A stretch of DNA of 64,000 bases from Minisyncoccota bacterium (GTDB lineage: Bacteria; Patescibacteriota; Minisyncoccia; Phycocordibacterales; UBA9973): assembly GCA_035299545.1 (NCBI GenBank), contig DATGWJ010000021.1:10090-74089 (forward strand). The letters are read 5' to 3'. This document shows, one piece after another, positions 5,394 to 29,498 of this stretch; within the stretch, counting starts at the first letter, position 1, and each line of letters starts with the position of its first letter. The translations under genes were made by a program, and so were the position numbers. The notes under the pieces were generated by a model. The model made no database searches. It saw nothing but the letters and a program-made list of their open reading frames with translations, and was not told the origin of the DNA.

Positions 5394-6425
5394 TTATGCA
5401 ATTGCGTATTGTCCCTGCTTGTTCTTCTTAAAATATTTAGGATTCTGTAAATTTACTAAAATAGTGTTCTTCTTTAGGTATCTTTCTTTCATAACTTGGT
5501 CAACAATTTCTTCTTTTACCATTGGTCCATTTTTCTTTAGAAGTTCTTTTATAACATCTCGGACTACACCAGTCTTGTAACCCCATTCAGATAAGGCATA
5601 TATACCTCTTCCAACAAGGACAAATCTTGGATCCTTTATGAGCTCATTATGACAAGTAGCAACATGACACTTCTTTCCGAAAGTATTTGAAACTGCCTTA
5701 GCTACTTCTCTGAAATGCATAGGACTGCCGTGCTTGCGCATCATTAAGAAAGCATAATCTTTCACTCCACGTGTCTTTATACTTGGTGATGATGCTCTAC
5801 CCCATTCTCCAAGTGGGTTTTTACTAATCTTTTTTGATATTGAGAGCCAGCGACGAGCAATCTCTTCATTTCTATATTGTTCAGATAAATCTTTTATCTC
5901 TTCAAGGAATCGAGCGATAAGCTCACTTTCTGAAATTAATTCATCATCTTTTAGATTTTCATAAATATTCTTGAGTGATTTGTGAATACGATCTGCAATT
6001 TCAGAATCAATACTCCATCGTGCTTTAAAATGATCGTCTTCTTTGTGTTTAGTAAACTCATTACTTAATGTTAAGAAGAGGTTTATGTGGTTCTGAGTCA
6101 ATTTATCTTTTGCTAAATGATTGAGAAGATCTTGTTCTGAAACTATTGCTCCTAGGGTGTGGACTAACTTTTTAAGCTCTTCGAAAACTTCCTTTTCATT
6201 TTTAAAGAATTCAGATTTGCGGATAAGAGATAATGCTGTGTTTTCTATTTGGCGGACACGTTCACGAGTAATACCATATTTCTTACCTATTGCTTCAAGA
6301 GTTCGGCGTTCTGTATCAGCAGTCAATCCAAATCGGTTAACAATGACCTCATAGGCGCGAGGAGGTAAATCTGCTAGTATCTTTTTAGTAATCTGCTTTG
6401 GTTTAAATGTAACTGTAGTAGCCAT
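5394..6425 (-). CDS. sigma-70 region-4 HTH / HARE-HTH domain protein
   Basis: N-terminal LPPRAYEVIVNRFGL...TLEAIGKKYGITRERVRQIENTAL matches sigma-70 region 4. C-terminal HFREVAKAV...RFVLVGRGIYALSEWG matches the HARE-HTH pattern (as in RNAP delta subunit). Confidence 0.5.
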   Translation of the reverse strand: MATTVTFKPKQITKKILADLPPRAYEVIVNRFGLTADTERRTLEAIGKKYGITRERVRQIENTALSLIRKSEFFKNEKEVFEELKKLVHTLGAIVSEQDLLNHLAKDKLTQNHINLFLTLSNEFTKHKEDDHFKARWSIDSEIADRIHKSLKNIYENLKDDELISESELIARFLEEIKDLSEQYRNEEIARRWLSISKKISKNPLGEWGRASSPSIKTRGVKDYAFLMMRKHGSPMHFREVAKAVSNTFGKKCHVATCHNELIKDPRFVLVGRGIYALSEWGYKTGVVRDVIKELLKKNGPMVKEEIVDQVMKERYLKKNTILVNLQNPKYFKKNKQGQYAIA

Positions 6426-8436: not shown

Positions 8437-9543
8437 TTAAAGTAATTTTATTATATCGTGATAAGTTACGAAAATCATTAAAATTATCAATAAGCCAAAG
8501 CCGACGGCGTTTACAACATTTGCTATTTTTGGTTTTATTCGAGAACCTTTTATCTTCTCAATAAGTAAGAAGAACAATCTTCCTCCATCAAGAGCTGGAA
8601 ACGGAATAAGATTTATAACAGCAAGGTTAATAGATATAAGAGCTGTGAATGAAAGTAAGTAGACAAATCCGAACTTTGCTGCATCACCCACAACCCCGAC
8701 AATCCCTACAGGACCTGTAAGAGTAGAGAGATCAGCTTGCCCTATAACAGCATCATGAATTAAATTATAAAATCCTGCCACAGTCGCAACTGTCACATCC
8801 CAGGTTAATTTCAACCCTTCCCATAGAGCTCTGTGCACAGGGAGCTTGAGAGTACCTATCATATCCATTGAGATACCGATCATTGCATTTTCACTAGTAC
8901 TACTCTTCTCTGGAATAACTTTTATATCAAGTGGTTCTTGTCCTCGAACTACAGACACTGTCACCTCGTCACCATTGTGTTTCTTTACGAAATTCTGAAC
9001 ACTCTCAACACTAAAATATGAGGATAATAACATAGTTGAATCTGTCTTTGTTTCTAAAGAGACTATTTTATCACCTGTCTTTACTCCCCCTTTCTCTGCA
9101 GGAGAATTTGGTAATACACTAGTAACTGTAACCGCTTGATTTTCTACTATAGCTCCCTTTGGCACTGCCCCCACAGAAGTAGGTAGCCCAGAAATAAAAC
9201 CGACAGATAAAAGTATCCATGCCACAAGTAAATTCATTACTACTCCAGCGACTAATACAGCCGCTTGCACATATCTTGGTTTATTCACAAAACTTCTAGA
9301 ACTATCTGGTCCAGTCATTGAATCTTCATCTGGATTCTCCCCAAAAATTTTCACATACCCTCCAAAAGGTAGAGCATTGAAATTATATGAAGTCTCTCCT
9401 ATTTTTTTACCAAAAAGTTTTGGTGGAAAACCAAAAGAAAATTCATCCACTCTTATTTTATTTAATTTCGCAACAATAAAATGCCCAAATTCATGGGAGA
9501 TAACAAGGATAAGTAAAATTATTAAAAAAATTAAAATATTCAT
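8437..9543 (-). CDS. rseP: RIP metalloprotease RseP (site-2 protease)
   Basis: HEFGHF zinc motif, TM helices, central PDZ-like region. Confidence 0.85.
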   Translation of the reverse strand: MNILIFLIILLILVISHEFGHFIVAKLNKIRVDEFSFGFPPKLFGKKIGETSYNFNALPFGGYVKIFGENPDEDSMTGPDSSRSFVNKPRYVQAAVLVAGVVMNLLVAWILLSVGFISGLPTSVGAVPKGAIVENQAVTVTSVLPNSPAEKGGVKTGDKIVSLETKTDSTMLLSSYFSVESVQNFVKKHNGDEVTVSVVRGQEPLDIKVIPEKSSTSENAMIGISMDMIGTLKLPVHRALWEGLKLTWDVTVATVAGFYNLIHDAVIGQADLSTLTGPVGIVGVVGDAAKFGFVYLLSFTALISINLAVINLIPFPALDGGRLFFLLIEKIKGSRIKPKIANVVNAVGFGLLIILMIFVTYHDIIKLL

Positions 9544-12740: not shown

Positions 12741-14723
12741 ATGGCATCTTTGTGCTACGATATAAATATGTATATAGCCACAGTTATACCTCTAGCTAAA
12801 GGAAGCCAAAAAGAATATTTGACTTATTTTTCAGGAACCGATATTCCTCTAGGAAGCATAGTTACTGTGCCTATTCGCTCAAAAAATTTTGATGCAATTG
12901 TGGTAAATATTGAAGAAGCAAAAAATCTAAAATCCGATATCAAGAATGCTGACTATCAACTTAAAAAAATAACCGAAGTAAAAGGTGATTCACCTTTTGA
13001 TAAAAATTTTTTCAATGCTTGCCAGAAAATGAAGGATTATGCAGTCAGTAATACTGGTTCTGTTATTAAATCTCTCTTGCCATCTGCTCTTTTAGAAAAT
13101 ATTGCGCGACTCAAAAAAATAAATAATACTGAAGATAACGATTCAGTAAAAGAAAATCTCAAGCACGAGAAATTAATATTTCAAGCAAACCAAGAAGACC
13201 GCTTAGCATTCTATCGTACTCTCATACGCGAAGCATTTGCTAAAAAAGAATCTGTTTTTATTTGTGTACCCACTCGCTATGATATAGACCATTTTCATAA
13301 AGAACTCGCCAAAGGCATTGAGAAATATGTATTTTCTTTCCACTCTGATATGCCTAAAAAGGTTATCGTGGATACATATAACTCCTCATTAACCGAGGTT
13401 CACCCTATCCTTATTATTGGCACAGGAATATTTATGTCCATTCCTCGTCATGATATTAAAACAGTAGTAGTTGAGAGTGAGAGTTCTGATATCTACAAAC
13501 AAATGGCAAGGCCATACGTAGACATTCGAGGATTCGCTGAAATACTATCATCATTACAAAAAACTAAATTAATATTTGGAGACACGCTCTTGCGACCAGA
13601 AACACTATATAGACACGAACAAGGAGAATTTGGAGAAATATCCTCCCCTCTTTATCGTCTTCCACAAACAGAAAGGCAAACGGTGGTAGATATGAAAAAT
13701 GAAGTAGCTAGCACAGGTAAGAAAGTTTTCACAATCATTAGTAATGATACAAGAAAGATGATAGATGATGCTCTATCTAAGAATCAATCCATTTTCTTAT
13801 TCTCTGTTCGAAAAGGTTTAGCTCCTATCACAACTTGTAGTGATTGCGGAAATACATTACTTTGTCCGGATTGCTCTGCTCCAATGGTTCTCTATGGCAC
13901 CAAACAAATAACTGCAAACAAGGCAACTACACCAAGAATATTTATGTGTAATAAATGCGGACGCAAAGAAAGAACGGAAGTTTCTTGCCCAAATTGCTCA
14001 AGCTGGAATTTATCACCACTTGGAGTAGGCACAGACAGAGTTTGGGAAGAAATAAAAGCTTTATATCCTAAAGTAAAAGTTATCCAAATAGATAAAGAAA
14101 ACACACCTACACAGAAAGATGCATCTATCGCAATGAAAGAGTTCACTAAGAATAAAGGAAGTATTCTAATAGGTACTGAGATGGCATTTTCTAATCTTAA
14201 AGAAGAAGTATATGCGAGTGCAGTGATATCTCTCGATGGATTATTTTCAATTCCTAGTTTTAATATCACTCAAAAAATTCTACACATCATAGAAAAATTA
14301 TTTTATATCACAACTTCAAATATTATTATCCAAACACGAATGCCTGATAATAAAATCTTGCAATATATTCTAAGTGGTAATGTTCTTCCTCTTTGCCGAG
14401 AAGATTTAAAAGAAAGAAAAGATTTCGGTTACCCTCCTTTCCGACGATTAATAAAAATAACTTTCGAAGGCACCGCTAAGGAGACAGAATTCGCAAGAAA
14501 TTACATTGAGAATAAGCTTGGTAATTATGAACCGCAGATATTTAGTGCATTTATAAGTAAAATAAAAGGCAAATATATTACAAACACAGTTATAAAAGTT
14601 GATCCAAGAATTTGGCCACTTCCAACAGGCGATAAAAAGATTATAGACCAAAACTTAGCCGAGAATCTCTCCCAGTTACCTCCTGCTTTTTCTATAAACG
14701 TAGACCCTGAGGATTTGTTATAA
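12741..14723 (+). CDS. priA: primosomal protein N' (PriA)-like with degenerate helicase core
   Basis: PriA N-terminal 3'-DNA-binding-like region and Cys4-Cys4 zinc-binding insert (CSDCGNTLLCPDC ... CNKCG ... CPNCSS). No GxxGxGKT Walker A and no DEXH motif are visible. Confidence 0.6.
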   Translation: MASLCYDINMYIATVIPLAKGSQKEYLTYFSGTDIPLGSIVTVPIRSKNFDAIVVNIEEAKNLKSDIKNADYQLKKITEVKGDSPFDKNFFNACQKMKDYAVSNTGSVIKSLLPSALLENIARLKKINNTEDNDSVKENLKHEKLIFQANQEDRLAFYRTLIREAFAKKESVFICVPTRYDIDHFHKELAKGIEKYVFSFHSDMPKKVIVDTYNSSLTEVHPILIIGTGIFMSIPRHDIKTVVVESESSDIYKQMARPYVDIRGFAEILSSLQKTKLIFGDTLLRPETLYRHEQGEFGEISSPLYRLPQTERQTVVDMKNEVASTGKKVFTIISNDTRKMIDDALSKNQSIFLFSVRKGLAPITTCSDCGNTLLCPDCSAPMVLYGTKQITANKATTPRIFMCNKCGRKERTEVSCPNCSSWNLSPLGVGTDRVWEEIKALYPKVKVIQIDKENTPTQKDASIAMKEFTKNKGSILIGTEMAFSNLKEEVYASAVISLDGLFSIPSFNITQKILHIIEKLFYITTSNIIIQTRMPDNKILQYILSGNVLPLCREDLKERKDFGYPPFRRLIKITFEGTAKETEFARNYIENKLGNYEPQIFSAFISKIKGKYITNTVIKVDPRIWPLPTGDKKIIDQNLAENLSQLPPAFSINVDPEDLL

Positions 14724-20791: not shown

Positions 20792-20820
20792 TTGACAAAA
20801 TGAGGCACTTACAATATACT
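20792..20820 (+). promoter_or_regulatory. near-consensus sigma-70 promoter TTGACA-17 nt-TATACT
   Basis: TTGACA at 20792-20797 and TATACT at 20815-20820, with exactly 17 nt between them. Confidence 0.55.
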
Positions 20821-20827
20821 GTGTTCT

Positions 20828-20936
20828 GCTTGGAGAGTTTAGAGAGTATCTCTTCAAAGCCGTTGTTCATTTGTGCTTTGTTCATGTTTTTAGGGTTAAG
20901 GTAAGCGGCTTTCGTTTGACGAAAGCCGCTTTTTTG
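20828..20936 (+). ncRNA. candidate small RNA of about 110 nt (promoter to intrinsic terminator, no convincing ORF)
   Basis: Predicted start just after the TATACT box. It ends at hairpin AAGCGGCTTTCGTTTGACGAAAGCCGCTTTTTTG (20903-20936). No plus-strand gene follows. Confidence 0.35.
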
Positions 20937-20939
20937 TTG

Positions 20940-21237
20940 TCTAAAAAGACAAATAAAAAGCCTCCACGATCAAACGTAGAGGCACATGTAAGGTTAATTA
21001 CCTAGGGAAAGTTTCGTTCAGGTATACGCGCCTACACATTGAACAAATGAAGAAAATTAGATCGGGAAGGTGTACATTGTACCCTATCGCCTTATTTTCC
21101 ATTTCCCAGTGGAACCTTGACTTAATGAGTATATTACTCGGAGGAGGAGGAATGTCAAGGGGAAATTTTTAGTTATCAAGTTCTACAACAAGAGATACTT
21201 CCAGTCTCTTCCCCTTAATGGTATTTAAATATATTGG
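20940..21237 (-). ncRNA. structured 3' region after the RT gene (candidate RT-associated ncRNA)
   Basis: 300 nt with no ORF between the RT stop and a minus-strand terminator (CCTCTACG-TTTGAT-CGTGGAGG plus T run, about 20945-20990). Contains nested helices (AAGGGGA...TCCCCTT; CCTTGAC...GTCAAGG) and a CCTCCTCCTCC tract. Confidence 0.3.
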
Positions 21238-22644
21238 TTAAATTTTTAAGTTATATATATTATTGACTCTATTTATGTGTTTTTGTATAAATTTATATGA
21301 GATAGCTTGTGAAGCTAAAAATCTTTTATGGTGAAATAGAAAATCTGTATGTAAACATTCTTTTGTAATATCTTTTAATAAAGCAAGAAAATACTTTTTT
21401 TGTTTAGTATCTATATTAGAGTATATTTTTTTATAGTCTTTAAAATCAGGAGGGTGGGAAACCAAAAAATCTTTTGTCAAAATAAACTTTATAAGGTCAT
21501 CAATTTTCTTCATCTTTCCATCAGCTTTCTTGAGAGAACTTAGTATAGCTCTAACTAAAGTTCTACCTCCAGACCTCAGGTCTTGCTTGTTCTTTAGATA
21601 AAACTCAATTGCTTTATCTATGTTTTTTGAAGAAACAACATTATTGCTTCCTCCTAGTTGCATAAGTATTTCAAATGCAAAATAATTATTAAATTCAGAT
21701 TTTTTTCTTACATGAACTTTTTTTTGATTCAAATTCAAACCTATCCTCATTAAATAACTAGAGGATCTTGCAATAATGTTTTTTATAACTTCTGTTGATT
21801 TAGCGAATACTACTTGGTCGTCTGCATAACGGAAATATTTTGCTCCTAATTTATCACATAATTCTTTCATTTTTTTGTCATAACTTTGCAGATAGAAGTT
21901 AGCTAGAATACGGGAACATTCTCCAAAGAGATCTTGTGGTAAACCAGCATTTTGATGTACATAAAAATTATTATGCCTATTCCAATATTTAAGAAAATGA
22001 AAAAGTAGATATACAACTTCATTATCTTTTGACTCTATATTGCTTCTTATTATATATTCCAGATGATCCAATCTTACTGAATCATAAAAGTTTGCAATAT
22101 CCAATTCTGCCACATAAGAATTTACATAATCATCAACAGAATATTTATAAATTTTGTTTGTAAAATCACCCCAATTAGCTGCCCATGCTTGTGGGTTAAA
22201 ATTAGTAGATATTTCGTATTCTCCTGACTGTATAAATGTATAATAATCTCCTTCAAATTCTTGTACAGAGATAAATTCTTTATCATAGCTAGATAGATCG
22301 ACTTCTTCCTCTATCTTTGTTTCCCCATTTAAAGACCACCCACCATAAGTTCCCTCTACTCTGTTTTTTGCTATGTATTTTTCTAATTTTCTTGTACAGT
22401 AAAAATAAACACAAAGATCTTCCAATTTAAATACAGGAATTACCCTTAAAACCTGGTTACCCTTATTAGAAATTAAATAATTTTGTGGTGGAGAGGGATA
22501 GTATTCTCTGCTTTTTATTTTTATATACAGATTATTAATTAATCTTTCTTTATTAATTGAGGTATATGGTATTAAAGTATCTTTAAGGTTATGTCTCCAA
22601 AACCCCTTATCTAAACATATTTCCTTAAATTCCTTTTCATTCAT
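21238..22644 (-). CDS. reverse transcriptase (unclassified, 468 aa with a long C-terminal extension)
   Basis: RT motifs 1-7: YPSPPQNYLISNKGNQVLRVIPVF; AELDIANFYDSVRLDHL; GLPQDLFGECSRILANFYL; YFRYADDQVVFA; RIGLNLNQKKVHV. No maturase or endonuclease domain. Confidence 0.85.
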   Translation of the reverse strand: MNEKEFKEICLDKGFWRHNLKDTLIPYTSINKERLINNLYIKIKSREYYPSPPQNYLISNKGNQVLRVIPVFKLEDLCVYFYCTRKLEKYIAKNRVEGTYGGWSLNGETKIEEEVDLSSYDKEFISVQEFEGDYYTFIQSGEYEISTNFNPQAWAANWGDFTNKIYKYSVDDYVNSYVAELDIANFYDSVRLDHLEYIIRSNIESKDNEVVYLLFHFLKYWNRHNNFYVHQNAGLPQDLFGECSRILANFYLQSYDKKMKELCDKLGAKYFRYADDQVVFAKSTEVIKNIIARSSSYLMRIGLNLNQKKVHVRKKSEFNNYFAFEILMQLGGSNNVVSSKNIDKAIEFYLKNKQDLRSGGRTLVRAILSSLKKADGKMKKIDDLIKFILTKDFLVSHPPDFKDYKKIYSNIDTKQKKYFLALLKDITKECLHTDFLFHHKRFLASQAISYKFIQKHINRVNNIYNLKI

Positions 22645-23186
22645 TTAGTATTTTTATCCTTAGAACTTTTTGTTATAGAGCTTTTTGTCCCATCTTCAAA
22701 AGTTCCTTCTAGGGCAATAAAGACATCAGCTGGATGTATGTTTGATTGATCAAAAGCAAGTCTTCTTATTTCTGGCTCAACAAATATCTGAGTTTTGTCT
22801 TTTTTACCTTTTTCTCCAGCGTAGACAACTAATCTTTTTCCTACTTTGGATTCAGTAAGAATTGCTCTGACAAAATACATATTATCTTTTGAATCAGCCT
22901 TGTCTTCTGCAATAGGGATAGCTTCATCATCAAGATTAATAAATTTCATTTTCTTAAACTCTTTGGAATTCAACTTATCAATAATGTAATGTTTTTGAAC
23001 ATTAAATTCTCTAGGAAGAGTATAATTTTTTTCACATTCCTGACATTTTAACCAACAAGCGTGTGGGTTATTTAATATTAAAGAAAGAGAGAGATGATGT
23101 TTAGGGCAAAGAGGTTTTGTATATTCCTCAGATGAGTATTGAACATGCCACTTAATTCCATCTATAATTACATATTGGTCATCCAT
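22641..23186 (-). CDS. zinc-ribbon protein co-transcribed with the RT (181 aa)
   Basis: CPKHH...CWLKCQEC Cys/His cluster. Its stop overlaps the RT start (ATGA), which suggests translational coupling. Confidence 0.6.
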   Translation of the reverse strand: MDDQYVIIDGIKWHVQYSSEEYTKPLCPKHHLSLSLILNNPHACWLKCQECEKNYTLPREFNVQKHYIIDKLNSKEFKKMKFINLDDEAIPIAEDKADSKDNMYFVRAILTESKVGKRLVVYAGEKGKKDKTQIFVEPEIRRLAFDQSNIHPADVFIALEGTFEDGTKSSITKSSKDKNTK

Positions 23187-23192
23187 AATATC

Positions 23193-23546
23193 TTAAAAAT
23201 CATAACCGTTATTACCAAAGTTATAATAACTACTTGTCTGTATACTTTTAACCAAAGTTCCTTTATTTCTACAATCAGGACACTCTTGCTCTTCAAGTTT
23301 AGCCCCTTTTGGAATATCAAAACCCTTTTTTGAGAAATTGCAGTTAGTGCATTCAGTATCTAATTTATAGAATTCTGGGATTTTATCATTCATGAGCAGA
23401 TTATAGCAAATTCTTAATAAAATACAAAAATATTTAGGGTCACTAAGGTATGCTTCGCATTCTATCCCAATGTGGTCACAAGTTACTAAATATTTTTCTT
23501 CAAGTATTCGAAAAATATGTAAGTACTCGCGACCCCAGCTCGGCAA
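23193..23546 (-). CDS. cysteine-rich small protein (117 aa), first gene of the RT operon. Start uncertain, apparently TTG
   Basis: TCDH, ECEAY, CTNC and CPDC pairs. Paralogous segment shared with ORF 25201..25440. Confidence 0.45.
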   Translation of the reverse strand: MPSWGREYLHIFRILEEKYLVTCDHIGIECEAYLSDPKYFCILLRICYNLLMNDKIPEFYKLDTECTNCNFSKKGFDIPKGAKLEEQECPDCRNKGTLVKSIQTSSYYNFGNNGYDF

Positions 23547-23625
23547 TTTTTCTGCTGAAAAATTATGCCTGTGCTTTCACAAAAGCGAAAAAGACTGGAG
23601 CAGTCCAGTCTTTTTAAATTCATGC

Positions 23626-23662
23626 TTTTGTGACCCTAGGGGTTAATAATTGGGGACGGATT
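23626..23662. repeat. degenerate copy of the tRNA-Glu 3' half (att-like footprint), copy 1
   Basis: TTTTGTGACCCTAGGGGTTAATAATTGGGGACGGATT versus the tRNA plus-strand AATTTGTGACCCTACCGGGAATCGAACCCGGATT. Preceded by hairpin GACTGGAGCAGTCCAGTC plus T run, as the tRNA is. Confidence 0.6.
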
Positions 23663-23812
23663 GTGGAGGATATAAAGGTATTTATAAGCTATGTTGATTT
23701 CTTGGTATATAAACACAATAGAAAGCTTGACATATCTACTTTTTTGTGCTAATCTCTAGAAAAGAACTTATTTGAAAATAAACTAATATATTCACTAATA
23801 AATGACAAAGGT

Positions 23813-24577
23813 ATGGGACACAGAACACTTAAAAGGGTGCCATTAAATTTTAATGCACCACTAAACAAAGTTTGGAAGGGATATTTAAATCCGTTTCCAG
23901 GACCACGAGAATGTAATCATTGCAAAGGTAGTGGGTATAATAATGCTACTAGGAAAATTGCAGATGATTATTATGGCCATTACTCTCAAAGAAGTCGTCG
24001 CTGGTGTGATAACATTACACAGGATGAAGTGCAAGCCCTCGTTGATGCTGGTCGTCTTTGGGATTTTACCAGAGTTCCCCTTAATGAAAAACAACTGAAA
24101 GATGTTTTGCCTAATGGCTGGCTTCCGTATGATAATGGAAAAATTCCTACAGCAGAAGAAGTTAACGCTTGGAGTGTTAAAGGTATTGGCCACGACACTT
24201 TTAATAAATCTATTTTAATTGAAACAAGAGCCAAACGTTTACATGTCTTCGGTTATTGTCCTCATTGTAAAGGAAAAGGAGAAACAAAACTTCCAAGGAA
24301 GATGAAAAAACGTTATCAAAACTGGCGGAAACATGATCCTCCACAAGGAGAAGGATTCCAGTTGTGGTCAACTACAACAGGAGGATCACCATTTAGCCCT
24401 GTTTTTGAAAATGCTGAACAACTTGCAGTATGGTGTGCAGATAATGCTACTATTTTTGCAGATTATAAACTAACTGCCAAAGAGTGGCTCCAGGTATTTG
24501 CAGATGAACATGTTCTTGATCTAGAAAGTTCCTGTATAATTGTAGTGAAAAAAGAAGCAGAATTTTGCTTAAATTAA
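23813..24577 (+). CDS. hypothetical protein with two CxxCxGxG zinc-finger motifs
   Basis: CNHCKGSGY and CPHCKGKGE. Own TTGACA-17 nt-TAATCT promoter at about 23737-23765 and a hairpin terminator at 24601-24632. Confidence 0.55.
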   Translation: MGHRTLKRVPLNFNAPLNKVWKGYLNPFPGPRECNHCKGSGYNNATRKIADDYYGHYSQRSRRWCDNITQDEVQALVDAGRLWDFTRVPLNEKQLKDVLPNGWLPYDNGKIPTAEEVNAWSVKGIGHDTFNKSILIETRAKRLHVFGYCPHCKGKGETKLPRKMKKRYQNWRKHDPPQGEGFQLWSTTTGGSPFSPVFENAEQLAVWCADNATIFADYKLTAKEWLQVFADEHVLDLESSCIIVVKKEAEFCLN

Positions 24578-24663
24578 TTGTTCATAAAAATTATTATTCT
24601 CTCCAATGGTTATAAGCCATTGGAGTTTTTTTATTTAAAAACACCCTCTTTTGAGAGTTTTTT

Positions 24664-24701
24664 AATTTGTGACCCTAGAGGTTAGTAGTTGGGGACAGAT
24701 T
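24664..24701. repeat. degenerate copy of the tRNA-Glu 3' half (att-like footprint), copy 2
   Basis: AATTTGTGACCCTAGAGGTTAGTAGTTGGGGACAGATT, followed by a TTGACA-17 nt-TATAGT promoter for the next ORF. Confidence 0.6.
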
Positions 24702-24786
24702 TTAGAAAATATAAGGGATTTTGGGTTTTATATTGACAATTAAATTTAAATCTGTTATAGTGTAATAAATTTTAAATTATACAATA

Positions 24787-25155
24787 ATGAGCAATAAAAT
24801 TGTGCACACAGTAATGACACAGGAAGGTCCCCGGTACAGAGTATGGTCAGATAATAGTGATAGATATGTAAGTCAAATCTTAACAGAAGATGAGCTTATG
24901 TTATTTTCAATTTTAATGGAAATAGAACCACTTCTGATAAATCATTTCTATGATCCCAAATATACTGGGGTAGTACTTGGTCACTGGATTCAGCGAGGAG
25001 AAGTTCTTAAGGATTGGAAGGTTGAATCAGAATTTATACCTGCTGATGATAAAGAGCAGGAAAAATATTCCAATATGGCAAAATCACAAAAAGAATTTCT
25101 ATTAAAAGCTGCCAATCTCTGGGAAGAATTCTTTCTTAATGGAAACATTAAGTGA
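24787..25155 (+). CDS. hypothetical protein (122 aa)
   Basis: ORF with an upstream consensus-like promoter; no motif recognised. Confidence 0.45.
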   Translation: MSNKIVHTVMTQEGPRYRVWSDNSDRYVSQILTEDELMLFSILMEIEPLLINHFYDPKYTGVVLGHWIQRGEVLKDWKVESEFIPADDKEQEKYSNMAKSQKEFLLKAANLWEEFFLNGNIK

Positions 25156-25200
25156 ATAACAACAAATCAAACGAGTATAACTTTTAATAGTGTACTCGTT

Positions 25201-25440
25201 TTATTTTACGTAACGATATACTGGAATTGCAAGTACACTTATTAAACCTAATAGGTTAGGGTCACTTTGGTATGCTTCTTCGCATTCATATTTTACGTGG
25301 TCACAAGTTAGACCGGGACCGCGAGTACGCTTATCGGTCATTACATGACCAGTACACCTTTTCCATTCGTGAGTACACTCACATGGAAAAGGTTTTCGAT
25401 TCCCGGACGCGAGATATGCAGATATCTCGCTTAGGGTCAC
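25201..25440 (-). CDS. cysteine-rich small protein, paralog of ORF 23193..23546
   Basis: GLTCDHVKYECEEAYQSDPNLL aligns to YLVTCDHIGIECEAYLSDPKYF. Chosen over the overlapping plus-strand ORF 25272..25460 because of this paralogy. Confidence 0.45.
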   Translation of the reverse strand: MTLSEISAYLASGNRKPFPCECTHEWKRCTGHVMTDKRTRGPGLTCDHVKYECEEAYQSDPNLLGLISVLAIPVYRYVK

Positions 25441-25481
25441 AAATTAAAAACTCCGACTGAAAGGTCGGCTTTTTTAATTTG

Positions 25482-25553
25482 TGACCCTACCGGGAATCGA
25501 ACCCGGATTACCGGCTTGAAAAGCCGATGTCCTAACCGTTAGACGATAGGGCC
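25482..25553 (-). tRNA. tRNA-Glu (anticodon UUC)
   Basis: Aligns position by position to E. coli tRNA-Glu: GGCCCUAUCGUCUAACGGUUAGGACAUCGGCUUUUCAAGCCGGUAAUCCGGGUUCGAUUCCCGGUAGGGUCA. Confidence 0.85.
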
Positions 25554-27357: not shown

Positions 27358-27678
27358 CTATTGCATTTCTTGGATATTAATATTATTGTTATCTATTTGA
27401 ATTCTATGTTCTCCTATAGTGTTTAATATAATGTTCATAATTCCAAAAACTGAAACCATCACGAACATTCCTATTATCCCCCACAGCATATGCTTCTTAC
27501 TTGAATTACGAATTTCTTCGTTATCTGGATTAAAAAGATATTGTAAGATGCCATAGATAAAATATACGACAGCTAGAGCGAACAATAAAACAATTATAGG
27601 ATTTATAATTACTCTATTAACACTTCTAACTAGTGTCTCAATATTTGCTTCAGCTGTTGGTATAATCTCTAGAGCCAT
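27358..27678 (-). CDS. small two-TM pilin-like protein (TrbC/VirB2-like), paralog 1 of 5
   Basis: Shared core with neighbours: VVYFIYGILQYLFNPDNEEIRNSSKKHMLWGIIGMFVMVSVFGI. Confidence 0.45.
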   Translation of the reverse strand: MALEIIPTAEANIETLVRSVNRVIINPIIVLLFALAVVYFIYGILQYLFNPDNEEIRNSSKKHMLWGIIGMFVMVSVFGIMNIILNTIGEHRIQIDNNNINIQEMQ

Positions 27679-27681
27679 AGA

Positions 27682-28056
27682 TTAGTAACAATAAATACCA
27701 GCGTCAGGATTTGGAATACATGGGATATCTTCTTGTCTTAGTTGTTCAGGTCCAACTCCGAATGTATTTGTGATAAGTGATAGAATTCCCCAGAATGCTA
27801 CGATAACGAACAATCCAATAAGACCATTTATTATCTTACTTCTTGCATTCTTCTTAGCCTCTTCATCAGAAGACAAAGTAAACTGTATAACTCCCCAAAT
27901 AAAGTAAACAACTGCAAGAGTAATAAGTACAGGGATAGCATATCCGAGCAATCTTGCAATATTACCAAGGATACTGAATGCATTTACGCCATCTGCAGCA
28001 AGTGCAAGCATAGGCATAGAACCGAACACAACTCCTAACGAAATAATTTTCTTCAT
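27682..28056 (-). CDS. small two-TM pilin-like protein, paralog 2 of 5 (signal peptide ending LALA)
   Basis: VVYFIWGVIQFTLSSDEEAKKNARSKIINGLIGLFVIVAFWGI. Confidence 0.45.
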   Translation of the reverse strand: MKKIISLGVVFGSMPMLALAADGVNAFSILGNIARLLGYAIPVLITLAVVYFIWGVIQFTLSSDEEAKKNARSKIINGLIGLFVIVAFWGILSLITNTFGVGPEQLRQEDIPCIPNPDAGIYCY

Positions 28057-28177
28057 AAATAAATCTTTACTAATAAAAGATAATTCTTATAATTTTGTCC
28101 TTTAAACCGACCAGAGTAAAAAAGACATTAACTTTATAACCTTATTGTACCATAAAAGAACAAACTATTTAACAATT

Positions 28178-28498
28178 CTATTGCCCAGGAAGCTGAGGAA
28201 TAGTGTTTGAGATTTCAAATGTTCCAGTGAGGATAGCCACAAGCCCCCACATAGACAACATCACGAACAAACCAATTAACCCTCCGATAATAAAACTTCT
28301 TCCCTTCTTTCTCTTTTCTTCGTTCTCAGGATTTATGTAATACTGTATTACTCCCCATATGAACGCAACCGTTGCAAGTGCAAATAATAGTGGCACTACT
28401 GCTTTATACAAGAAACAACTTGCCCAGTTAACTATGCTAGTTAAATCTTGCATTGATTTACCTGAACAAACCCCGGAAACTGTAACATTATTATCCAT
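28178..28498 (-). CDS. small two-TM pilin-like protein, paralog 3 of 5
   Basis: VAFIWGVIQYYINPENEEKRKKGRSFIIGGLIGLFVMLSMWGL. Confidence 0.45.
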   Translation of the reverse strand: MDNNVTVSGVCSGKSMQDLTSIVNWASCFLYKAVVPLLFALATVAFIWGVIQYYINPENEEKRKKGRSFIIGGLIGLFVMLSMWGLVAILTGTFEISNTIPQLPGQ

Positions 28499-28518
28499 AA
28501 TTAATTCTTATTTTAATA

Positions 28519-28971
28519 TTATGTTGTTTTTTTAATATCTTCGACCGTTTTACCTATAGCGTCTGCTATTACAAATGCCCCCAGGAGTAACGCCGCGCCT
28601 ATGAGCGTATAAACTAGGGAGTTCTTTGCTTTTGTAAGTTTCTCAGAGTTGCCTTGTGCTTGTACAAATAGAAAGCCAGTATAGATAATAGCAAGTGCGA
28701 CAATTGGTATGCCTATGTAGAGAACTATATTTATGATTTCTTTTATAAAAGAAGGAATATCTTTAATGTTATCACCTAAAGGATTTTCTATTTTAGTTGT
28801 TATGTTTGTGCCTGTATTGTCTACTCCTGCAGAATTATTATTAGTATTATCAACTCCATCTGGAGCAGCAAAAACCACTGGAGCTAATAACATAACTGCA
28901 AAGACTATTATAAAACTATATTTTAAAATTCCCGATAATATGGTGTATTTTTTTGTTTTAAAAATTTTCAT
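28519..28971 (-). CDS. small two-TM pilin-like protein, paralog 4 of 5 (signal peptide, N-rich linker)
   Basis: IIYTGFLFVQAQGNSEKLTKAKNSLVYTLIGAALLLGAFVIA. Confidence 0.45.
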   Translation of the reverse strand: MKIFKTKKYTILSGILKYSFIIVFAVMLLAPVVFAAPDGVDNTNNNSAGVDNTGTNITTKIENPLGDNIKDIPSFIKEIINIVLYIGIPIVALAIIYTGFLFVQAQGNSEKLTKAKNSLVYTLIGAALLLGAFVIADAIGKTVEDIKKTT

Positions 28972-29102
28972 CCCGTTAGAGATAGGAATTCTTTAGATTT
29001 CCGTATCTTACTAATTATAATTAATAATATAGACCTAATAAAACATTTTCATTTATCTTAATAATATCACATACACATCTCTAACGGGATTATTAATAAT
29101 AA

Positions 29103-29498
29103 CTAACTTAAGAACGAGTCCCCTGTAAATCCAAGCGCCGCAAGTATCGACTTTACTATAAGCCAAGCTGCGAGAGCGATAACATAGCCAATAAGAGCAT
29201 TTTTAAATATATGCTTTGCTTTTGAGACATTCTCCGAACTCCCTCCAGATGAGAGGTAAAGCCATCCAGCATAAATTATAATAAGAGCAAAAATAGGAGT
29301 GGCAAGAGTTATAAGTATGAAGGAAATAATATTATTTATTATTGTCATTACCATATTAAAATCGCAAGGATCATCAAAACCACCACTATTATTTACAATT
29401 GTATTACACTCTGGCACCAACTTTGCTCCGAATGATATTAAAGGAACAGAGAATATTATGGCAAATCCTAGAACGAATGGAATGACTTTTTTAATCAT
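29103..29498 (-). CDS. small two-TM pilin-like protein, paralog 5 of 5
   Basis: IIYAGWLYLSSGGSSENVSKAKHIFKNALIGYVIALAAWLIV. Confidence 0.45.
   Translation of the reverse strand: MIKKVIPFVLGFAIIFSVPLISFGAKLVPECNTIVNNSGGFDDPCDFNMVMTIINNIISFILITLATPIFALIIIYAGWLYLSSGGSSENVSKAKHIFKNALIGYVIALAAWLIVKSILAALGFTGDSFLS

Follow-up and report, generated by a model that had tools for sequence, protein, structure and literature searches.

The 64-kb stretch of DNA analyzed here (hereafter designated the window) derives from a metagenome-assembled genome of Candidatus Paceibacterota, within the candidate phyla radiation (CPR)/Patescibacteria, and contains, downstream of a tRNA-Glu(UUC) gene, two small one-gene cassettes that each end in a copy of a repeat, here named P (Table 1). 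To the left of tRNA-Glu lie tRNA-Ser, tRNA-Val, and the genes for His_Phos, NTP-transferase, TrxB, FtsZ, FtsA, YbeY, and PriA, and to its right two unknown open reading frames (ORFs), five T4SS-pilin paralogues, a solute-binding protein, and GyrA. The variable region extends over 4.7 kb from the His_Phos start (20755, minus strand) to the 3′ end of the tRNA (25481), and the final 9 nt of tRNA-Glu (25481–25489, GTGACCCTA on the plus strand) constitute both the common core of the repeats and the insertion point. The same region holds a reverse transcriptase (RT) operon, 200 nt from P copy 1, which had been overlooked in the original prediction, a reading of the window from its letters alone that proposed serial integrations into the tRNA 3′ end.

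That prediction had assigned to each cassette its own promoter and terminator. Signals of both kinds indeed flank both ORFs. ORF122 in the tRNA-proximal cassette 1 is preceded by the promoter TTGACA-17-TATAGT (24733–24761) and followed by a hairpin with a T run (~25164–25206), and ORF254 in cassette 2 has a perfect –35 box (TTGACA, from ~23729) and a terminator at 24601–24625; the weak part of the assignment is the –10 box of ORF254 (TAATCT), which is poor and was missed by the promoter scan. The CxxCxGxG motifs of ORF254 are DnaJ-like, and the protein belongs to an uncharacterized family without a Pfam or Protein Data Bank (PDB) match, for which at least 388 homologues were found (E ≤ 1e-5), those with names coming from Patescibacteria. 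Many members of this family reside on contigs of ~1 kb, and these short contigs are not P-bounded circles.

Table 1 Features of the tRNA-Glu locus and their supporting evidence.
Feature	Position	Strand	Evidence or description
RT operon	21238..23409	-	PADLOC RT_UG13b; Pfam RVT_1
RT, 468 aa	21238-22644	-	PADLOC RT_UG13b E = 4.2e-126, residues 1-461; Pfam RVT_1 50.5 bits
ORF181	22641-23186	-	181 aa, small, Cys-rich/zinc-ribbon-type
Zinc-ribbon ORF	23193-23396	-	67 aa
Promoter-like site of RT operon	23409-23380	-	
Putative displaced tRNA-Glu trailer	23434..23629	-	91.5% identity over 165 nt to L141, 90% to L064
P repeat copy 1	23630..23697	-	nhmmer E = 4e-16 and 2e-12; distal edge of cassette 2
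Cassette 2 cargo, ORF254	23813..24577	+	254 aa, two CxxCxGxG motifs
P repeat copy 2	24669..24738	-	nhmmer E = 2e-16 and 2e-10; tRNA-distal edge of cassette 1
Cassette 1 cargo, ORF122	24787..25155	+	122 aa, without family
Short module	25256..25310	-	paired with 23434-23485, 80% identity over 56 nt
Element X (B copy)	25311..25440	-	structured module; 76-89% identity directly after tRNA-Glu in relatives
58-nt palindrome	25432..25489	.	inverted repeat I2, 26-nt arms, 92% complementary
tRNA-Glu(UUC)	25481..25553	-	ARAGORN; Rfam tRNA 65.5 bits; junction comparisons

The two repeats had been described as degenerate copies of the tRNA-Glu 3′ half. Their coordinates and sequences were found to be exact, and copy 1 (23627–23683) is 81% identical to copy 2 (24666–24722) over 57 nt. 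The 13-mer taken to mark them has five matches in the window at ≤2 mismatches, against 1.27 expected, and five or more were reached in none of 100 shuffles. The resemblance to the tRNA, however, is limited to its last 9–13 nt, to which copy 2 adds the trailer, so that an exact 20-mer (TTTTTTAATTTGTGACCCTA) is common to copy 2 (24658–24677) and to the tRNA end plus trailer (25470–25489). The 3′ segment of the tRNA is thus directly repeated at the distal boundary; the repeated stretch is shorter than is typical for tRNA-targeting islands, and the remainder of the repeat is not tRNA-like. When the terminal 9 nt were removed, the repeat aligned locally with the tRNA at a score of 12, as compared with a shuffle mean of 12.9; moreover, the Rfam tRNA covariance model is blind to it and the T-stem is not kept. 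The interpretation of P as a decayed tRNA half was rejected, since the similarity ends after 9 nt. The 9-mer core (TAGGGTCAC/GTGACCCTA) occurs six times in the 64 kb, always inside 23435–25489, and three of these copies are inverted (23435, 25257, and 25432); neither these nor a second repeat pair (A, 23434–23485; B, 25256–25310) had been noticed before.

To place the repeats in a wider context, 120 loci were collected by scanning metagenome contigs for the tRNA-Glu 3′ half, and the total of 1.28 Mb of fetched DNA also includes 61 RT loci. In this material the window repeats proved to be members of a conserved family of ~60 nt, P, which was defined by nhmmer (E from 1e-2 to 1e-15) and has the consensus TAATTCCTAAATCCCCTTATATTCTCTACAATCTGATTCCAATTTTAACCCCCTAGGGTCAC, also written as ...AAATCCCCTTATATTCTCTACAATCTGRTTCCAATTT...CYTAGGGTCAC or, in motif form, as ACAATCTGRTTCCAATT...GGGTCAC; copy 2 of the window terminates in CTAGGGTCAC followed by A. 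The last 8–10 nt of P are the last nucleotides of tRNA-Glu. There are 24 matches, 17 of them non-redundant, in nine distinct loci, one of which (L123) is identical to a locus from another sample (L146) and was merged with it. All occupy the same strand as tRNA-Glu and lie 0.67–5.8 kb downstream of it. The remaining ~0.9 Mb, which takes in the 61 RT loci and the DNA upstream of the tRNA, contains none, and neither does the rest of the window. No match in Rfam, even at E ≤ 1, was obtained for P or for the elements X and Y described below. Two scans of IMG/VR yielded nothing or chance 18-mer matches in coding regions that lack the rest of P, and a viral origin of P was rejected on this outcome.

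Because the tRNA similarity ends at 9 nt and the Rfam tRNA model misses P, P is an element of its own, which, judged by the alignments, shares just a crossover-sized core with the tRNA. Its orientation is constant while that of the ORFs varies, which indicates that P marks a boundary and is not a signal for expression, and its retention across genomes beside unrelated cargo points to selection on P itself. In several genomes P sits at every cassette boundary, which contradicts the view that the window repeats are independently decayed halves; as copies of a conserved element, they define a cassette array and not a pair of degraded islands.

The proposed site-specific insertion at the tRNA-Glu 3′ end was supported by two independent comparisons of filled and empty sites, whose boundaries are nucleotide-exact after GGGTCAC; tRNA-Glu is intact, and the variable DNA begins directly after this sequence. 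Thus, L141 and L064 read tRNA...GGGTCAC/AAAAGCGCGAATTTAAAAAGACTGG (the slash marks the junction) and lead into Y, and the window reads P (copy 1)...GGGTCAC/AAAAGCATGAATTTAAAAAGACTGG with the same trailer, which in L091 is likewise placed after a P copy. As had been supposed, the junction sequence is regenerated, with GGGTCAC preceding the trailer both after the tRNA (L141, L064) and after P (window, L091). A second comparison gives the same picture: L123 reads tRNA...GGGTCAC/ACGTAGAAAAAAGAG...X, and L096 reads tRNA...GGGTCAC/(1066 nt, ORF271 and P)...GGGTCAC/ACGTAGAAAAATGAG...X, so that L096 differs from L123 by one extra 1066-nt cassette with P, placed exactly after GGGTCAC. Finally, L122 keeps tRNA-Val, tRNA-Ser, His_Phos, and tRNA-Glu in the order and orientation of the window, with 382 nt between His_Phos and tRNA-Glu as compared with 4725 nt in the window. 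The comparison with related genomes, which had been suggested as a check, therefore revealed empty or differently filled sites (L122, L141, L064, and L123/L096) and not the same organization everywhere.

Small GIY-YIG nuclease-like ORFs were seen directly beside tRNA-Glu in two of these relatives, L096 (ORF 2142–2399) and L122, where the ORF (13260–13565) lies within the 382 nt and two 37-nt repeats in tandem, ending in GCTCAC, come before it (13566–13593). In L134 (17–1883), tRNA-Glu has the reverse orientation with respect to tRNA-Ser and the pilin cluster, its two conserved flanks, and the variable side faces the opposite way; this arrangement suggests an inversion of the tRNA-anchored segment.

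The most extensive array was found in L123, where 9.8 kb fill the interval corresponding to that between His_Phos and tRNA-Glu. It contains eight P copies in direct orientation at a spacing of 450–1000 bp, and each of the eight P-terminated intervals includes exactly one ORF of ≥100 aa on either strand. Where the ORF runs in the tRNA sense, promoter-like sites start 3–5 nt past the core (2354, 5143, and 6156), and terminator-like hairpins number 17 against 2.9 expected. The cargo differs from cassette to cassette (Maf, DUF3307, and unknowns) and comprises no recombinase. What the arrays have in common is P, X, and Y; the cassette ORFs are unrelated, and an array-versus-array comparison found no cassette common to two arrays.

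The absence of an integrase near the island, as stated in the original prediction, also held: no Phage_integrase, Resolvase, or Recombinase domain of Pfam was found among the window ORFs of ≥120 aa (minus a few overlapping or shadow ORFs), no recombinase domain was found in the ORFs of the L123 array, and ORF339, ORF181, and ORF254, tested as hidden recombinases, gave no sequence match in PDB. With a length of 0.45–1.0 kb, the cassettes are too small to have carried a recombinase. These results bear on the possibility that integrase-bearing elements serially entered tRNA-Glu and subsequently lost their integrases and most of their genes. Insertion at a tRNA 3′ end, the direct repeat, and the empty sites in relatives would all be expected from such islets, and Prochlorococcus tycheposons are reported to undergo successive integrations that displace older elements and leave partial tRNAs (bioRxiv 10.1101/2020.12.28.424599). 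The classical picture is also seen at the locus of a distant RT homologue, L030, where a 24-nt direct repeat of the tRNA-Asn 3′ end encloses an 8.3-kb island with a UG13b-like RT (926–1000 and 9271–9294). In L005, three partial tRNA-like fragments (T-loop/acceptor-like, 1159–1454) lie between tRNA-Trp and the RT and are unlike that tRNA-Trp. Random decay, however, should not yield eight units each with one intact ORF, a promoter, a terminator, and a conserved P; integrase fragments are nil in the eight-unit array, and P is conserved beside unrelated cargo and contains no partial tRNA copy beyond 9 nt. We therefore regard the decay of former islands as an unlikely origin of the array, albeit one with a real chance.

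The trailer DNA behind tRNA-Glu is itself structured. Some 40 nt past the tRNA, behind a bidirectional terminator hairpin, there occurs either of two elements, X or Y, in ~17–19 loci each. The 58-nt palindrome of the window runs from the tRNA 3′ end through an A-rich trailer, a GC hairpin, and a U-rich tract to the inverted core; it forms the start of X and is predicted to act as a bidirectional terminator, being terminator-like on both strands, and its trailer pairs covary across 12 loci (columns 16–19/58–61). X is a module of ~130–190 nt (25311–25489 in the window, minus strand) with conserved CUGC and GUAA loops, which reads in the tRNA sense GUGACCCUAAG, a CUGC-loop hairpin, CGUCCGGGAAUCGAA, further hairpins, and then ...GCGGUCCCGGU, and which occurs directly after tRNA-Glu in L077, L078, L086, L106, L123, L136, and others. 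The 5′ portion of X is reverse-complementary to the acceptor 3′ strand and T-arm of tRNA-Glu (GUGACCCUA...CCGGGAAUCGAA), and complete copies finish with a direct copy of the last 15 nt of the tRNA. Compensatory changes were observed in 24 of the 46 predicted pairs, including those that join the tRNA trailer to the beginning of X, and a hand tally gave ~17 G-U versus ~11 A-C, which favors neither strand and neither RNA nor DNA.

Y (~110 nt; 23472–23583 in the window, minus strand) is the alternative to X at the same position and is also present in L064, L104, L113, L114, L125, L141, and others. Its fold combines a helix, which contains a conserved asymmetric internal loop (RSA/GA), with a second hairpin that is long, and 10 of 11 pairs in domain 1 covary. 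In the window, Y lies within the segment next to P copy 1, which is composed of a terminator hairpin (23588–23615), Y, a mini-hairpin module, and a truncated X start (AGTGACCCTAA) and which, from its identity to the trailers of L141 and L064, is evidently the ancestral tRNA-Glu trailer, displaced. The short module of repeat pair A/B runs ACTTGTGACCAC, the GAATGCGAAG(AAG)CATAC mini-hairpin, and AGTGACCCTAA, and similar mini-hairpin structures follow Y or X in L086 and L124. Both copies include a small GCGAAGC hairpin on the minus strand (23447–23462 and 25269–25287; GCGAAGAAGC in the second copy), which we take to be the exceptionally stable d(GCGAAGC) mini-hairpin sequence. The minus-strand ORFs of the A/B repeats share a TCDH..ECE..AY.SDP motif, and a protein-coding reading was considered and rejected, because a covarying hairpin chain is conserved at the nucleotide level and the 9-mer falls in differing frames. 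Collectively, X and Y are candidate new RNA or DNA motifs that may pair with the tRNA-Glu 3′ end.

These structures lend some weight to the idea that P is a cis-acting element related to the acceptor end of tRNA-Glu, with a role in RNA processing, insulation, or protein binding, for example, and that the array grew without dedicated site-specific recombination. Its growth would then be due to segmental duplication and to homologous recombination between tRNA ends or P copies, with DNA taken up from relatives as one source. P is strongly conserved and its orientation tracks the tRNA and not the ORFs, and the 9-mer recurs inverted in X and Y, which covary like functional RNAs. Moreover, the 20 nt common to copy 2 and the tRNA end suffice for short-homology exchange, and the proximal units of the window and L091 hold the whole trailer, the hairpin, and X or Y, as would be the case for swapped segments. 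Duplication should nevertheless produce related cargo, which is unrelated both within and between arrays, and the junctions are nucleotide-exact after GGGTCAC in independent comparisons; in addition, the terminators within each cassette speak against one long processed transcript. An origin of this kind is thus distinctly unlikely.

The RT operon lies inside the 4.7-kb variable region and yet is not P-bounded. The RT matches its UG13b profile over the full length, possesses the RT catalytic domain, and shows a YADD motif; UG13b is a predicted defence RT group only (PMC9226505). Contigs with RT homologues were gathered by a profile scan (a single-protein scan of contigs had given none), and among the ~430 homologues, several with names come from Patescibacteria. 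The closest ones often follow a tRNA gene in the same orientation (L001, tRNA-Gln; L005, tRNA-Trp; L009 and L010, tRNA-Asn). This placement, together with the proximity of the operon to copy 1 and the form of the cassettes, which are complete transcription units starting exactly at the tRNA 3′ end, might be taken to mean that the UG13b RT makes or captures the cassettes, reverse-transcribing mRNAs from a tRNA-Glu 3′-end primer for insertion at the tRNA gene. By tblastn (E ≤ 1e-3), however, the RT has no match in any fetched tRNA-Glu locus, including every P-bearing one (L123, L096, L136, and L181 among them), and the RT loci are without P. The repeats copy the genomic trailer (AAATTAAAAAA) and not a CCA-tailed mature tRNA, and the cassettes hold promoters, which mRNAs do not. 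This scenario is accordingly very improbable. In L125, an ORF181 homologue follows Y directly behind an intact tRNA-Glu; this, the lack of the RT in tRNA-Glu loci, and the lack of P in RT loci indicate that the operon is cargo or an older resident of the hot spot, and it appears to be a cargo or neighbor of the array and not its engine.

A reading of the A/B repeats as parts of a diversity-generating retroelement or a retron was also rejected: the RT is of the UG13b group, and other genomes contain the repeats as conserved non-coding elements, which follow tRNA-Glu in many loci without an RT match. Avd, the accessory protein sought for the former, is absent among the scanned proteins, and the differences between A and B are not adenine-specific, as those of its TR/VR pair, located at the 3′ end of a target gene, would be. 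Among the RT loci, L005, whose RT is 64% identical to that of the window, looks like another tRNA-end hot spot as far as its tRNA-like fragments show, and L012 has a 20-nt partial tRNA-Arg repeat (5933–5952) ~60 nt from the tRNA.

Taken together, these observations lead us to interpret the locus, with a probability of about 0.58, as a small cassette array that arose as one unit after another was inserted site-specifically at the tRNA-Glu 3′ end. From the fixed orientation of P, its conservation beside unrelated cargo, the one-gene units, and the exact junctions, we infer strand exchange catalyzed in trans, and these four features fit such an exchange better than the decay of integrase islands or duplication. 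Each cassette would consist of a single ORF, oriented either way, with a promoter and a terminator of its own and with P at the tRNA-distal end. A recombinase, whose gene would reside on a helper element or at another place in the genome, would exchange strands within the common core between the tRNA end and a cassette that is free and probably circular. This cassette would enter between the tRNA and its trailer, leaving the tRNA intact and pushing older cassettes and the original trailer with X or Y outward. For the window, at least two insertions may be envisaged, that of the ORF254 cassette first and that of the unit comprising trailer, X, and ORF122 second.

Several points weigh against this interpretation. 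P is not palindromic and lacks a long inverted repeat of its own, and no pair of inverted sites could be made out on either side of the core, where a tyrosine or serine recombinase would be expected to bind. No excised circle or alternative junction was observed, nor was a recombinase. The loci had been fetched by an identical tRNA-Glu 3′ half, so that the restriction of P to the DNA after tRNA-Glu is partly an ascertainment effect, and the distinct P-bearing loci number just nine. In the window and in L091, the unit nearest the tRNA comes with a trailer, a hairpin, and X or Y of its own, which could equally represent homologous exchange of whole locus segments between strains. Furthermore, ORF254 homologues are mostly in unrelated, P-free contexts: the seven contigs inspected showed varied surroundings and just one partial P-like site (E = 2e-4), located ahead of the homologue on a 7-kb contig without a tRNA (L184/L185).

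The array proposed here was compared with known systems of gene capture. Integron arrays that stand without an integrase are called CALINs (clusters of attC sites lacking integrases). Like these and integrons, the present arrays are composed mostly of single-ORF cassettes with unrelated cargo, a site in direct orientation for each cassette (eight P in L123 and two in the window), and a fixed primary site; new units appear to enter proximally, and a nearby integrase can be absent. The primary site is attI in integrons and a tRNA 3′ end here. An attC site is an imperfect palindrome of 57–141 nt with R″/L″–L′/R′ boxes, and a CALIN does not require an integrase next to the array. Judged from the alignment, P has neither R boxes nor a long inverted repeat: attC conserves structure and the RYYYAAC/GTTRRRY boxes, whereas P conserves sequence and is non-palindromic. 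Integron cassettes are generally promoterless, co-oriented, and driven by Pc, in contrast to the present ones with their own promoters and terminators on both strands, and no IntI-type integrase was found by the array among ORFs of ≥120 aa in the window or in L123. Background on integrons is available in PMC4889954. The layout is thus integron-like, and three of four integron features fail.

With tRNA islands and tycheposons, the arrays share integration at a tRNA 3′ end, an intact tRNA, a repeat of the tRNA end between elements, empty sites, and hypervariable content, and the newer tycheposons of Prochlorococcus likewise push older ones into the island (bioRxiv 10.1101/2020.12.28.424599). The difference lies in the elements themselves: tycheposons span several kb, carry a tyrosine recombinase and replication genes, and are separated by genuine partial tRNAs, whereas the units described here are of one gene and 0.45–1 kb, encode no integrase, and use a dedicated 60-nt site with ~9 nt of tRNA. 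Cis-mobilizable elements (CIMEs) and the Xer-dependent pdif modules of Acinetobacter plasmids are similar, on the proposed interpretation, in being non-autonomous modules with recombination sites, a recombinase elsewhere, and tandem accretion. CIMEs derive from integrative and conjugative elements and retain attL/attR of a known integrase, and pdif modules have 28-bp dif-like sites in alternating orientation. P copies, by comparison, are all direct, 60 nt long, and devoid of a recognizable dif-like 11-6-11 dyad.

The genomes of CPR/Patescibacteria are tiny and contain few recognized mobile elements, and little is understood of the routes by which these bacteria exchange accessory and defence genes. 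Full-text literature searches retrieved no description of such arrays in the CPR. If the proposed insertion mechanism is correct, the arrays would represent a second, independent answer to the modular gene capture of integrons, with a boundary site of their own and no linked integrase, and the P motif together with the tRNA-Glu end would provide a handle for tracing the recombinase and for cataloguing CPR accessory genes. More tentatively, and with the odds somewhat against it, one may think of a dedicated gene-capture platform of Paceibacteria, analogous to the integron in function yet different in construction, in which the tRNA-Glu entry site receives autonomous promoter-gene-terminator cassettes bounded by the non-palindromic 60-nt P, the recombinase, possibly of a new type, is encoded elsewhere, and X and Y perhaps serve as accessory DNA or RNA.

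Additional features were noted at the two margins of the locus. Adjoining tRNA-Glu on the right, the five small membrane proteins of the T4SS_pilin family are encoded in tandem at 27358–29498 (minus strand), and several related contigs (L096, L134, L146, and L156) preserve the synteny of this cluster. On the opposite side, between the RT stop and His_Phos (20955–21160, minus strand), a promoter-like TTGACA-16-TAATAT (21158–21131) is followed after ~150 nt by a strong terminator (20983–20960), which together delimit a candidate small RNA without an Rfam match, and the plus strand bears a convergent promoter and terminator pair at 20792–20931.

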